A stretch of DNA of 35,850 nucleotides from Acidimicrobiia bacterium (GTDB taxonomy: Bacteria > Actinomycetota > Acidimicrobiia > Spongiisociales > ZC4RG35). Below are positions 30,328 to 34,328 of the stretch, piece by piece. Position numbers and translations under genes: made by a program. The notes beneath the pieces are model-generated. The model was given only the letters and a program-made list of their open reading frames with translations. It made no database searches and had not been told where the DNA came from. The stretch spans positions 1 to 35,850 of the forward strand of contig JAZFTT010000234.1 of the NCBI GenBank assembly GCA_036446835.1, given 5' to 3'. How positions within the stretch are numbered: the first letter of the stretch is position 1; each line of letters opens with the position of its first letter.

Positions 30328-31619
30328 TGCGAGAGGCTTCCCATTCTTTGAGTGACCAACTCGGCGAAGCGTTCGCCACGCGCGGCGTAGGAGTCGAACT
30401 GGTCAAAGCTGGCGCAGCCTGGAGCCAGAAGCACCGTGTCACCGCTCACGGCCACCTGGGCAGCCATCTCAACCGCTATGTCCATAGTTTTTGCAAGTCT
30501 CCCCCGTTCGTCGGCAGTGGCCACGAGCCCCGGTCCCGCCTCACCTATGCCAATGAGAACTCGAACCCTCGGCTCGGTGGCAATCGGTGTCAGATCCAGG
30601 CCTTTGGGCAGACCTCCTGCGATCAGGATCACCGAGTCGTGTGCACGAATCGAGGAGAGGGCAGCATGGGGATTTGTTGCCTTGGAGTCGTCGATCCACC
30701 GGATTCCATTCGCCTCGTGGACAAGAGAACGTCGATGCGGTCCGGGTGAGTATCCGGTGGCACCCTTCACTACTGCCTCCTCCGTGGCCCCGATCCGCAA
30801 AGCCAAGGCCGCCGCCGAGGCGAGATTGGCCAGATGACTCGGGTCCCGGGATGTCAACTCGGTGATATCGATCACGACTTCTCCAACAACGAGCGCTCCT
30901 TCATGCACCCCGCCGCCCCCAACGGGAAGATGGGTTCCGGAGATCGGGTACGTCTCCGACGGGGCCGCCATCGCAAGTTCGGTGGCTCCCCCGTCGTCGC
31001 AGTCATAGACCAGAAGGTCGCTACTGGTCTGATTGGCGTAGATGCGTGCCTTCGACGATCGGTAGCTGTATTCAGACCCATGCCAGTCGAGGTGATCGGT
31101 GGCAACATTGGTTATCGCCGCGGCCTGCGGATGGAACGACTCGGTGAACCTGAGTTGGAAGCTGGAGACCTCCACAACCAGAGCGTCATATCCGTCATCG
31201 GCGAAGTCAGACAGCGGTGTTCCGATATTGCCTGTGGCGGGAGCGTTGAGACCCGAGGCGTCCAGCATGGCCGCCGTCGCCTCGGTAACACTGGTCTTGC
31301 CGTTGGTTCCGGTGATCGCGATCACCGGAACCTGCAAATGACGCCACGCATACTCGATCTCGCTCCACACCGGGATGCCCCATTCGAGAGCCTCGACGAT
31401 CGGCATGGAGCGCTCAGAGAAGCCGGGGCTCGCAACCACGACGTCAACGCCGTTCAGAAGCACCGGGTCCCAACCTCCGTTGGCGATGGCGAACCCCTCC
31501 GCCAGAGCCAGCGGAGACGGCTTCTCGTCGTAGATGGTGACCGAAGCCCCCTTTCTCCGTGCGAGACGACTCACAGCCAGACCCGAGACCCCGGCACCGA
31601 GAACGAGCAACCGGCTCAC
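30324..31619 (-). CDS. murD: UDP-N-acetylmuramoyl-L-alanine--D-glutamate ligase
   Basis: VLGAGVSG, SPG, ITGTNGKTS, GNIG, VEVSSFQL, DHLDWH, DDSKATN, LLAPGCASFDQF; real start GTG 31619 overlapping the mraY stop. The 810-aa ORF is a spurious upstream extension. Confidence 0.96.
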   Translation of the reverse strand: MSRLLVLGAGVSGLAVSRLARRKGASVTIYDEKPSPLALAEGFAIANGGWDPVLLNGVDVVVASPGFSERSMPIVEALEWGIPVWSEIEYAWRHLQVPVIAITGTNGKTSVTEATAAMLDASGLNAPATGNIGTPLSDFADDGYDALVVEVSSFQLRFTESFHPQAAAITNVATDHLDWHGSEYSYRSSKARIYANQTSSDLLVYDCDDGGATELAMAAPSETYPISGTHLPVGGGGVHEGALVVGEVVIDITELTSRDPSHLANLASAAALALRIGATEEAVVKGATGYSPGPHRRSLVHEANGIRWIDDSKATNPHAALSSIRAHDSVILIAGGLPKGLDLTPIATEPRVRVLIGIGEAGPGLVATADERGRLAKTMDIAVEMAAQVAVSGDTVLLAPGCASFDQFDSYAARGERFAELVTQRMGSLSQ

Positions 31620-32665
31620 AGGAGATCCGAGAGTCGAAGGAAGTCCCCATAGAAGAACCCGAGACCCAGAGCTACGCCGATGCCGGTGAGAATCCAGAAT
31701 CGGATCACGACGGTGGTCTCTGGCCAACCACCAAGATCGAAGTGAAAGTGGAGCGGCGACATCCGGAAGATTCGTTTTCCGGTCAGCTTGAAACTGGCGA
31801 CCTGGAGTATCACTGACAGCACCTCTGCAACGTAGATCCCACCGAGGACAGCCAACAAAAGATGGGTGTTGGTGAGAAGAGCCAGGGCAGCGAGCAGTCC
31901 GCCCACGGCCTGGCTGCCGACATCGCCCATGAATACTTTCGCCGGAGGGGCGTTCCACCACAAAAACCCGAGCAGGGCCCCGAACATCGCAGATGAGACC
32001 ATGGCGAGCTCGAGCGGGTCGACGCCCGCATAGAAATTCGGATTCCTGAACTGCCAGAAGGCAATCACCGTGTACGACGCGATCACCAACGACGACGAAC
32101 CGGCGGCGAGACCGTCCATGCCGTCCGCCAGGTTCACCCCATTGGCCGCTCCCGTGAGCATCAAGAGCACCCAGATGAAGAAGAAGGGCCCGAGGTCGAT
32201 CCCGAGTGGTCGGACGAAGGAGATTTCGGTAACCACGCCGGCGAGCGATGCGCCCCATGCGAAGAGCGCAGCAATCACCAACTGCAAACCAAACTTCACC
32301 GACCTCGACAAACCGAGGCTTCGTTTCCTCTTGTATTTCGCCCAATCGTCGGCAAACCCGACAAGAGCCATCCCGGTCAAGGCAAACACCACCAACAACC
32401 CACCGGGGCTGAACGGTCTCATCTCGAGGCTGAAACCGGTATCGGGACTCCATATCCGAATGTGCGCCAGGAGCCATCCGAAGATCGCAGCGCTCACAAA
32501 AACCACCCCACCCATCGTTGGGGTGCCCTGCTTGTGCGCGTGACCCTTGATGTCCTCCTGGACAAACTGGCCAATCTCCCGCCTGCGTAGGAATCGAATC
32601 GCGTACGGCGTCCCGAATATCGACGCTGTCAGGCCCACGGCCCCAGCAATCAGAAGGGGAATCAC
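31616..32665 (-). CDS. mraY: Phospho-N-acetylmuramoyl-pentapeptide transferase
   Basis: H..KQGTPTMGG, GFADD, NGVNLADGMDGL, WWN.PPAKVFMGDVGS, RMSPLHFHF; start GTG 32665 (VIPLLIAG). Confidence 0.96.
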   Translation of the reverse strand: MIPLLIAGAVGLTASIFGTPYAIRFLRRREIGQFVQEDIKGHAHKQGTPTMGGVVFVSAAIFGWLLAHIRIWSPDTGFSLEMRPFSPGGLLVVFALTGMALVGFADDWAKYKRKRSLGLSRSVKFGLQLVIAALFAWGASLAGVVTEISFVRPLGIDLGPFFFIWVLLMLTGAANGVNLADGMDGLAAGSSSLVIASYTVIAFWQFRNPNFYAGVDPLELAMVSSAMFGALLGFLWWNAPPAKVFMGDVGSQAVGGLLAALALLTNTHLLLAVLGGIYVAEVLSVILQVASFKLTGKRIFRMSPLHFHFDLGGWPETTVVIRFWILTGIGVALGLGFFYGDFLRLSDLL

Positions 32666-32832
32666 TAGTGGCCCGCTCCGCAAGTACGCCGACGTTTCGA
32701 CGGGCAGATGACGCCTCTCCCGGCGTCCTCCGCCTCGACGCATCTCGCCGATGCACCTTCGTTGTGCGTCCTAGGGAGCGACGCCCCTGCCCCGCCCAAA
32801 CGCGCTACCGGACTTACGCAACAGACCACTAG
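32665..32832 (-). mobile_element. MITE-like non-autonomous inverted-repeat element (168 bp, CTAG-bounded), folding as a long hairpin on the minus strand
   Basis: Ends CTAGTGGCCCGCTCCGCAAGT and ACTTACGCAACAGACCACTAG are 16/21 inverted repeats. Pairing continues inward about 55 nt per arm. CTAG occurs at both ends; excision leaving one CTAG restores murE-TAG/GTG-mraY overlap. No transposase ORF. Confidence 0.75.
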
Positions 32833-34328
32833 TCCATGCTCCTTGAACCGGGGGCGGAATCGGCGGACATCCGACGACGGCTCAAAGCTTCGCGAGCTAC
32901 TTCGCGATCATCGAATGGTCTCATCTCGTCCGCGATTTCTTGGTGCGACTCGTGACCCCGACCAAGGATCAGAACGATGTCACCGTCGTCAGCCGCATTG
33001 ATCGCCTTCGAGATGGCAGACGAGCGATCCAGATCCAGAATCGACTCTGTTGAAGGGTCAAGACCGGACACGACAGCATCGGCGATTGCCTGAGGATCTT
33101 CGGAACGGGGATTGTCAGTTGTGACCACGGCCAGGTCTGCTCGTGAGACTGCCGAGCCCATCAAAGGCCGCTTCGCCTGATCTCGGTCCCCGCCCGCCCC
33201 GATCAGCGCGATCACACGGCGCCCTCCCAGAGCCCGTGCTGTCGCAATTGCCACCGAAATCCCCTCGGGGGTGTGGGCGTAGTCGACAATGACCCCGACC
33301 GAATCATTCCCAGAGACGACTTCGAATCTTCCTGGGACACCTTTGAGAGATTGGAGTCCGGCGACCACCTCGTCGAAGCCGATACCGGCAGCCAGACCGC
33401 AGGCTGCTCCCAGCACTGCATTGTCTACGTTGAAGAATCCCACAACGGGAACCATCAGCTCGGCGGAGCCCCATGGTGTGATCAGTCTCAGCGACGTACC
33501 CTGCGAGGTCGGCACAATGTCGGCGTGGCGGATCTCGCCATCCGATCCGACGCGTAGAACAGAGCCGTGGAACGTCCGAGCGATCTCCTCTCCGACCTCG
33601 TCGTCGACGTTGACGACAGCAGTTCCCACTTCGTACTCATCAAACAGCCTCCGTTTGGCGCTCCGGTAGCTCTCCATGTCACCGTGAAAGTCGAGATGAT
33701 CCTGAGAGAGGTTGGTAAACGCAGCCACGGCAAAACTCGTCGCCGCGACCCGGCCCAGAACGAGTGCATGAGACGAGACTTCCGCGGAGACCAGCTCGGT
33801 TCCGCTGTCGCGCATCCGTGCCAGCAGTCGCTGAAAATCCGATGCCTCGGGCGTGGTGTGAATCGATCTGACGCCTTTGTCGCCGATGCAGGTATGGATG
33901 GTGCCGATAAGACCGGTCGTCAGCCCTGCCGATGACGCGATCGATTCGATGTAGTGAGTGACTGTCGTCTTGCCATTCGTCCCGGTGACACCGATCACCT
34001 TCATCGTCCGGGACGGATCACCATGAACACGCGCGGCTAGCGGCCCCAGAGCGCTCCTTGTGTCCGGAACAACAATCTCCATGACGCTCGATCCGGTCGG
34101 ATGATCCACACAAACGGCCGGCGAGCCGGCTTCCACGGCTCTGGAAATGAAGCCATGTCCGTCGACGATGGCGCCTCGAACGGCCACGAAGAGGATGTCC
34201 TCTCCGGCCTGGCGGGAGTCGTGGGTGACATCAACGACCGAAACCTCGGTTTGTCCTGTTTCTGGTGACACAAGATGCCCACCCACCACATCAGCGAGTT
34301 GCTGCACGCTGCTAGCGCTGATAGCCAT
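32829..34328 (-). CDS. murE: UDP-N-acetylmuramoyl-L-alanyl-D-glutamate--2,6-diaminopimelate ligase
   Basis: HDSR, GVTGTNGKTT, TTPE, EVSSHAL, FTNLSQDHLDFH, VDYAHTP, DNPR (diaminopimelate-type motif), GRGHE..Q. Confidence 0.97.
   Translation of the reverse strand: MAISASSVQQLADVVGGHLVSPETGQTEVSVVDVTHDSRQAGEDILFVAVRGAIVDGHGFISRAVEAGSPAVCVDHPTGSSVMEIVVPDTRSALGPLAARVHGDPSRTMKVIGVTGTNGKTTVTHYIESIASSAGLTTGLIGTIHTCIGDKGVRSIHTTPEASDFQRLLARMRDSGTELVSAEVSSHALVLGRVAATSFAVAAFTNLSQDHLDFHGDMESYRSAKRRLFDEYEVGTAVVNVDDEVGEEIARTFHGSVLRVGSDGEIRHADIVPTSQGTSLRLITPWGSAELMVPVVGFFNVDNAVLGAACGLAAGIGFDEVVAGLQSLKGVPGRFEVVSGNDSVGVIVDYAHTPEGISVAIATARALGGRRVIALIGAGGDRDQAKRPLMGSAVSRADLAVVTTDNPRSEDPQAIADAVVSGLDPSTESILDLDRSSAISKAINAADDGDIVLILGRGHESHQEIADEMRPFDDREVAREALSRRRMSADSAPGSRSMD

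Follow-up and report, generated by a model that had tools for sequence, protein, structure and literature searches.

The window analyzed here is a stretch of 35,850 nucleotides (nt) (positions 1 to 35,850 of contig JAZFTT010000234.1, forward strand; assembly GCA_036446835.1) from a metagenome-assembled genome (MAG) of an Acidimicrobiia bacterium, hereafter G000 (2.28 Mb, 267 contigs, 81% complete, 60% G+C). Its minus strand carries a dcw-type (division and cell wall) gene cluster, assigned from open reading frames (ORFs) and Pfam matches, in the order ftsI-murE-mraY-murD-ftsW-murG-murC-murB-ftsQ, followed by ftsZ. According to the ORF coordinates, ftsI and murE overlap by 17 nt; mraY and murD meet at GTGA, the murD/ftsW, ftsW/murG, murG/murC, and murC/murB junctions read ATGA, and murB overlaps ftsQ by 4 nt. 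The murE/mraY junction is the sole nonoverlapping one from ftsI to ftsQ, as had been stated in an earlier reading made from the letters of this DNA (the sequence-only reading). The other junctions downstream of murE are 4-nt RTGA overlaps, not the 1-nt TAGTG overlap which that reading had taken as the rule in the operon. The exact interval from the murE stop to the mraY start is filled by a 168-nt unit (32832-32829 to 32668-32665, minus strand). It has CTAG at both ends, a description that matches the minus-strand sequence of 32665-32832, and the mraY GTG starts on the final G of the unit. We interpret this unit as a MITE (miniature inverted-repeat transposable element) of the IS630 type, a family of insertion sequences (ISs), inserted at the murE/mraY junction, and we put the probability of this identity and insertion history at about 85%.

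The unit belongs to a dispersed repeat family. A BLAST search followed by iterated nhmmer found 17 near-full-length copies and 2 weaker or partial matches in G000, in keeping with the earlier expectation that it would not be single copy; the 17th copy (contig C204) is cut by a contig end. The nhmmer and covariance-model boundaries of the junction copy are 32665-32832 and coincide with the CTAG...CTAG unit. Family members are 165 to 172 nt long and contain no transposase gene. Their terminal inverted repeats, GTGGTCTG.../...CGGGCCAC, occur in covarying variants across all subfamilies, and most copies read C-TA-GTG...CAC-TA-G. A covariance model built from 16 copies was searched against 41 related genomes and detected the family in 18 of them (a tally that includes the unpublished G027). 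All eight genomes of the genus carry it, with 14 to at least 67 matches each; across the order as a whole, it occurs patchily. When species genomes were scanned for exact matches to a 20-nt core, at least 114 stretches came up, nearly all in MAGs of Acidimicrobiia or Actinomycetota as judged by their titles. Some element-bearing records (L103, L108, L124, L157, and others) are titled Boseongicola, Gammaproteobacteria, or Acidobacteria; in a family that is confined to Acidimicrobiia MAGs apart from these, they could be mislabeled bins or cases of transfer. On contig C124 of G000 (L042 370-400, minus strand), one full copy is followed by a 30-nt duplicate of the left end, ATGGTCTGCCGCACAAATGGTGTGAGGGTG, a solo end fragment adjoining TA. 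Overall, the family is widespread and strongly folded, and it is a MITE of an already known kind, the IS630 type.

The autonomous IS with matching ends for which the sequence-only reading had proposed a search is present and intact in the congener G007. This IS of ~1.2 kb encodes a 392-aa transposase that matches the NCBIfam IS630 model with 262 bits (cutoff, 100) as well as Pfam DDE_3, with helix-turn-helix domains, and it is bounded by C-TA-GTGTCCTGTCCGG...CCGGACAGGACAC-TA-G. In one MITE subfamily (L094 and L142), 16 of 16 terminal bases at each end are identical to those of the G007 IS. The termini differ in other subfamilies, among them that of the murE/mraY copy, and a change at one end is accompanied by a change at the other. 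Outside the TA, the bases vary among copies, as would be expected of target sequence. The left tetramer is CTAG in 8 of 15 G000 copies and in 63 of 91 copies from relatives, and the right one is CTAG in 7 of 15 and 55 of 91, respectively. Copy ends, empty sites, and the G007 IS together support a nonautonomous inverted-repeat element of the IS630 type with TA duplicated in a CTAG target, one of the identities that had been suggested for it. IS630-family (Tc1/mariner-like) DDE transposases would then be the enzymes that mobilize the 162-nt nonautonomous element. A separate IS630-family transposase relative with 45% identity (G006:C37:22944-23981; L080) contains six in-frame TGA codons and could be a pseudogene or something odder.

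Comparison of the junction among relatives gives the insertion history. The murE 3′ end and the mraY start were located in 30 loci. The site is filled in three of these (G000, G003, and G005), and the two genes are adjacent in 24 of the other 27, for 16 of which the junction sequence was read. In the remaining three genomes, which are distant (G027, G038, and G034), the murE C-terminal match is missing or lies ~1.3 kb from mraY, and murF is suspected to lie between murE and mraY. Adjacent junctions in the genus read ...G(G/C)GAGCATGGAnnnGTGA; the others likewise lead directly into a start codon, GTG or ATG. In the genus and the closest relatives in its family, the murE TGA overlaps the GTG of mraY, with GGGAG located 9 nt upstream. 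Empty sites thus exist in congeners, as had been anticipated, with the difference that they read GTGA with a TGA stop instead of the predicted TAGTG, and the ancestral murE/mraY junction is, judging from these sequences, a GTGA overlap. The filled sites of G003 and G005 read gaa-TA-G[element]C-TA-GTGA, indicating a preinsertion site gaaTAGTGA, which is one substitution from the gaaCAGTGA of G001 and G006. The three filled copies share one unusual subtype, which points to a single insertion that was then inherited. Each differs at 10 of 168 positions, similar to the flanks. Within the outer stems (pairs 2 to 26) of these orthologous copies, all five changes at paired positions keep pairing; flank position 1 holds the sole remaining change in the outer part.

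A simple course of events would account for this arrangement. In an ancestor of at least three species-level lineages, the element would have entered the TA of the murE/mraY junction by cut-and-paste, duplicating this dinucleotide. With G as the first base of the element and C as its last, the upstream TA plus this G would form the new TAG stop of murE, at the cost of at most one residue. The downstream TA would then be followed by the untouched mraY GTG, leaving both essential genes intact, and a 166-nt spacer would have replaced the 4-nt GTGA overlap. That the insertion preserves the reading frames of both genes, as the sequence-only reading had pointed out, is borne out.

Two further copies can be compared with their sites in relatives. 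Only G000 has the element at fba/nhaA; G003, G005, and G002 have a single (C/A)TA(G/A) there, and this insertion is recent. The empty fba/nhaA junction of G003 (G003:C185:3185-3265; L222) appears to read CTAGTG, apparently a GTG start overlapped by a TAG stop, and would be a site of the kind that the element occupies at murE/mraY. At the site of the pstP/rodA copy, G003 and G005 have a remnant of 17 to 18 nt, which in G003 ends in GGGGCACTAG, like a MITE end. The G000 copy (G000:C81:3432-3602; L216 1333-1503) separates a PP2C phosphatase gene from a RodA/FtsW-family gene, whose ATG it adjoins, and this is a second cell wall operon split by the family.

The location of copies at gene ends raises the question of target choice. 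CTAG is depleted ~5-fold in G000 (1,529 sites observed versus 8,149 expected from base composition), and 444 of the 1,529 sites (29%) have a TAG that terminates an open frame of 120 or more codons. Full-length copies whose two flanks are both available number 15 in G000 and 91 in relatives; 8 of the 15 and 48 of the 91 abut such a stop, which, in G000 and relatives taken together, is at the left end in 31 instances and at the right end in 32. The sequence-only reading had proposed an element that targets CTAG sites containing stop codons; dedicated targeting of this kind is needless, since CTAG is scarce and 29% of its sites are already stops. The pattern fits a CTAG preference together with the loss of intragenic insertions, which are enough to explain it. 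A codirectional open frame of at least 120 codons begins within 30 nt of the other end in 3 of 15 G000 copies and 12 of 91 copies from relatives (candidates for junctions of the murE/mraY kind), and several of these frames start at CTAGTG. Of 17 flanking open frames scanned in G000, 15 match Pfam families and two have no match. The genuine gene pairs are aldolase and NhaA, a PP2C phosphatase and a RodA/FtsW-type protein, aldehyde dehydrogenase and a methyltransferase, a helix-turn-helix protein and PhoH, and enoyl-CoA hydratase and a sortase, as well as two convergent pairs, DUF4097 with FtsH and an MFS transporter with patatin. The patatin-like phospholipase ORF (G000:C67:4395-5282; L220 96-983) reaches its stop only after 45 nt of the right end of a MITE copy, and the element may supply the C-terminal tail of this protein.

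As RNA, the junction unit forms a single long hairpin, branched at its tip (−103.5 kcal/mol; z = −5.9); none of 200 shuffles folds as well as the 168-nt unit. In the basal helix, positions 1 to 13 (C-UAG-UGGUCUGUU) pair with positions 156 to 168 (AGCGGGCCACUAG). GAGGAC in the second core block is invariant in 16 of 16 G000 copies (Table 1). The core (32721-32772) also has two AGGACGC direct repeats, CAGGACGCAC and GGAGGACGCC, which resemble the right terminal repeat of the parent IS, CAGGACAC, and could be internal transposase-binding sites; GACGCAC can pair as well with the 3′ strand of the central hairpin, giving an alternative fold. No Rfam family matches 32400-33100 at an E value of ≤1, and a scan of 32300-33200 gave no promoter-like site and no terminator-like site inside the element. 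Relatives conserve the position of the mraY GTG start. The element contains an in-frame ATG (32743) that would lengthen MraY by 26 residues, and it was judged an unlikely start; it has no upstream Shine-Dalgarno sequence, and the extension is strongly basic.

Table 1. Features of the murE/mraY junction, in positions of the window
Feature	Position	Strand	Basis
murE (UDP-MurNAc-tripeptide synthetase type Mur ligase), 499 aa	32829..34328	-	ORF; Pfam Mur_ligase, Mur_ligase_M, Mur_ligase_C
murE stop TAG	32831-32829	-	murE 3′ end reads ATG GAC TAG
mraY, 349 aa from GTG 32665 (32665-32663)	31616..32665	-	MraY signature, Glycos_transf_4
MITE proper, 162 nt, GTGG...CCAC, sense relative to murE-mraY transcription	32668..32829	-	family alignment, fold, model boundaries
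Upstream TA target copy; with the first base G of the element forms the murE stop TAG	32830..32831	-	empty-site logic
Downstream TA target copy	32666..32667	-	sequence; copy ends
Basal helix 5′ arm / left terminal inverted repeat CUAGUGGUCUGUU, holds the murE stop	32820..32832	-	fold
Basal helix 3′ arm / right terminal inverted repeat AGCGGGCCACUAG, ends in the G of the mraY GTG	32665..32677	-	fold
GGAG, Shine-Dalgarno-like, 10 nt 5′ of the mraY GTG, inside stem	32676..32679	-	fold
Core block AGGACGCACAACGAAGG, conserved, mostly unpaired	32756..32772	-	family alignment; exact-pattern scan
Second conserved core block GTCGAGGCGGAGGACGCCG	32721..32739	-	family alignment

Strand-specific selection on structure is the one unusual property of the family. 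Pairing was examined in 98 copies (93 distinct) from relatives and named MAG records, aligned by the covariance model; such an alignment is fitted to the model and favors structure, and the margin is large: 91.8% of cells pair, compared to 37 to 43% with partners slid, and 49 of 54 pairs show changes on both sides. None of 500 shuffles reached the observed pairing and covariation values. The counts are 629 G·U/U·G versus 82 A·C/C·A cells in the 98-copy set and 140 versus 18 in G000. G·U makes up at least 10% in 18 pair columns, and A·C does so in 3. A minimum spanning tree of 80 copies has 218 one-sided changes between Watson-Crick (WC) pairs and G·U versus 54 between WC and A·C, and on edges of <10% divergence, they number 77 versus 18; neutral transitions on duplex DNA are expected at 1:1. 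G·U is thus tolerated 4 to 8 times as often as A·C. All 16 G000 copies fold better on the sense strand, by 12 to 35 kcal/mol, and one copy scores 150 bits with the covariance model in sense versus 30 bits in antisense. The copies face host genes equally in both orientations, meaning that selection through host mRNAs does not explain the strand asymmetry. We therefore infer that a single-stranded form of the element itself, RNA or single-stranded DNA (ssDNA), matters for its own propagation. The wider proposal would be that a module of ~167 nt, with a hairpin selected on one strand independently of the direction of host transcription, uses this structure for its spread or control, and we regard it as an unlikely, though consequential, possibility. 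Just as speculative is the extension that the same stem geometry would let such elements sit in stop/start overlaps of essential operons, the stop and the start being kept adjacent.

The element may tune mraY translation, as the sequence-only reading had proposed. That reading had placed a GGAG about 10 nt before the GTG and inside the terminal stem, together with the G of the start codon; the spacing and the stem location hold, except that one GGAG base, a G, is an unpaired bulge (GGAG at 32679-32676). The basal helix would pair the region of the murE stop with the GGAG/GTG region of mraY, so that the stop and the start would stay neighbors in space. A ribosome unwinds roughly a dozen nucleotides ahead of its P site. 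One terminating at the murE UAG would be expected to open the basal helix partly or mostly, and translation of mraY would stay dependent on ribosomes that finish murE and melt this helix, or on cleavage of the hairpin. On this model, coupling may have been retained by unfolding, a tentative view that we hold with less than even confidence. GGAG spacing was checked in 80 distinct copies from relatives and 16 copies from G000: GGAG at the 10-nt spacing occurs only in the junction copy (G000, G003, and G005) and in one identical-tailed copy, L121, in a named MAG record, and another subfamily carries AGGA inside its terminal repeat. These small numbers hint that the GGAG is an adaptation after insertion.

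Several observations weigh against parts of this interpretation. No IS630-type transposase was found in the G000 MAG at its 81% completeness (no DDE_3 match and no match to the G007 transposase), so that for the G000 lineage we only infer mobilization. Transposase relatives occur in 7 of the 41 genomes (the unpublished G027 and G038 included) versus 18 with the MITE. The MITE core has no similarity to the G007 IS beyond the terminal repeats, indicating that the MITE is not a simple deletion derivative of this IS, and the covariance model detected no MITE-like interior in the G007 IS or in 13 transposase loci. As for the insertion history, the flank tree (((G000,G007)87,G003)54,G005)100 nests the empty G007 among the filled genomes. 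The G007 junction reads GGGAG-GGTAGAGAA-GTGA, with 5 or 6 of 9 bases unlike those of the other empty sites. Judged by eye, GGTAGAGAA does not fit a Tc1-type excision footprint or a clean empty site; a deletion between two GGAGC motifs was also considered and does not fit these 9 bases. For G007, loss of the element with repair is possible, as is recombination. Coupling by unfolding meets its own difficulty: with the mRNA forced to be single stranded at the murE stop, the predicted unpaired probability from GGAG to GTG goes only from 0.14 to 0.15 to 0.22, the start codon stays paired (unpaired, 0.01 to 0.04), and the freed arm re-pairs with the mraY coding sequence. This equilibrium folding model lends weak support to unmasking by a terminating ribosome, and kinetic effects or nuclease processing may be alternative ways to free the mraY start. 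Finally, IS630/Tc1 transposition is described as a double-strand reaction in the partial text of the ISY100 article (PMC2170065), which leaves no obvious role for a single-strand hairpin.

Other explanations of the junction differ mainly in what the element does there. It might be a neutral passenger, a tolerated insertion past which mraY initiates independently at the GGAG/GTG, through breathing of the stem or nuclease cleavage, with no regulatory value. The copies at many unrelated gene ends in both orientations (stops on the left 31 times and on the right 32 times), the divergence of orthologous copies at about the rate of their flanks, and the weak support for simple unmasking all agree with such a view. 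A hairpin of −98 kcal/mol over the ribosome-binding site and start of an essential gene should, however, be costly unless it is opened, the GGAG at the 10-nt spacing is confined to the junction copy and one identical-tailed copy, and the insertion persisted through the divergence of three species-level genomes; a passenger without function is thus a genuine possibility but a somewhat doubtful one. Alternatively, the element could be a mobile structured RNA, an RNA gene or module of ~167 nt that spreads by IS630-type ends and whose sense RNA is functional for the element or the host. Covariation in 49 of 54 pairs, the conserved unpaired blocks with GAGGAC in 16 of 16 copies, the 7.7-to-1 ratio of G·U to A·C, the 150 versus 30 bits in sense and antisense, and a core unrelated to the IS interior are what such an RNA would show. 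We nevertheless consider it rather unlikely: it has no Rfam match, the murE/mraY copy has no promoter- or terminator-like site, and, because there is no orientation bias, read-through would provide sense RNA from only about half of the copies.

Different origins of the sequence carry far less weight than the IS630-type MITE. A long hairpin-forming repeat with single-strand-specific pairing resembles REPINs, and CTAG at both ends can be read as a 4-bp duplication, which would suggest either a REP/REPIN-like element mobilized by a transposase of the RAYT (Y1) kind or an element of the IS5/IS701 type, the latter being a parentage that the sequence-only reading had mentioned. Both are very improbable. 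Y1_Tnp matches are absent from all five congeners or relatives searched (G000 was not among them), and the ends are identical to those of an IS with an IS630-family transposase. Moreover, the junction copies of G003 and G005 are flanked by ATAG at the left end but CTAG at the right end, so that IS5/IS701 parentage is not indicated; this arrangement fits a TA duplication with element ends G...C, and TA is what is duplicated. As for a decayed murF remnant or a lineage-specific spacer, murF is indeed missing between murE and mraY in G000, and in G027, G038, and G034, the murE C-terminal match is absent or ~1.3 kb from mraY. The genes of congeners overlap by GTGA with nothing between them, and these empty sites refute the idea; the sequence is also a full-length member of a dispersed repeat family, and we assign this origin a negligible chance. 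The dcw cluster of this genus does not contain murF, and the best murF-model match in G000 (167 bits, below the 288.6-bit cutoff) is a separate Mur-ligase gene on another contig (G000:C166:8598-9587; L208).

With the IS630-type MITE as the preferred interpretation, the junction is a clean case in which a TA-duplicating element with G...C ends enters a stop/start overlap of essential genes without damage, the stop being rebuilt and the start left intact. The apparent attraction to stop codons is explained by target scarcity. As far as the literature found goes, this is the first characterized MITE family with an identified IS630-family parent for the Acidimicrobiia, a large, mostly uncultured actinobacterial class. 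We found no published description of an Acidimicrobiia MITE and no literature that combines a MITE hairpin with translational coupling. Among the listed papers that mention IS630, MITEs, and stop codons, none evidently describes the present family, and the article texts available hold no description of a role for single-strand structure in the IS630/Tc1 superfamily. If real, the strand-specific covariation would imply that a transposon superfamily believed to operate solely on duplex DNA has an RNA function or a stage as a single strand, with an IS630/Tc1-type element using a single-stranded nucleic acid structure, RNA or ssDNA. In the murE-hairpin-mraY arrangement, long-range translational coupling has a natural test case.

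Among known repeats, the mycobacterial interspersed repetitive units (MIRU) lie between operon genes with overlapping stop and start codons and keep coupling, through small ORFs and not through a hairpin. To our knowledge, MIRU are not IS630-type MITEs. The remaining comparisons rest on partial article texts. The closest parallel in mobility is RUP of Streptococcus pneumoniae, mobilized by IS630-Spn1 at TA; like the element described here, it is short and noncoding, has terminal repeats resembling IS630-family ISs, and inserts at TA (PMC2229807). RUP differs in its length of 107 bp, in its Firmicutes host, and in having no sequence relation, and the text available reports neither strand-specific covariation nor a conserved structured core (PMC2229807). 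ISY100 duplicates TA by double-strand cut-and-paste (PMC2170065), and the preference of IS630 for TA in 5′-CTAG-3′ is known to us from a title in the reference list of that article (Tenzen & Ohtsubo 1991, in PMC2170065). IS630 of Shigella sonnei and ISY100 thus share with the element the TA duplication and, going by this title, the CTAG preference (PMC2170065); they differ in that the element has no transposase and its interior is unrelated to that of the one IS examined. The bcr1 repeats of the Bacillus cereus group and the ERIC repeats of enterobacteria are likewise short (~127 to 155 bp) and transcribed; bcr1 also shows compensatory base changes that keep an RNA structure, and ERIC is also TA flanked and can alter the stability of upstream mRNA (PMC3184786). 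Both belong to other phyla and have other sequences, bcr1 has 5-bp direct repeats, and the available text links neither to a parent IS (PMC3184786). The Correia/NEMIS elements of Neisseria differ from the present family in sequence and host. They are likewise hairpin-forming, cotranscribed MITEs, and their RNA stem-loops are RNase III substrates (PMC2229807); by analogy, cleavage of the RNase III type is a possible route by which the mraY ribosome-binding site might be freed.

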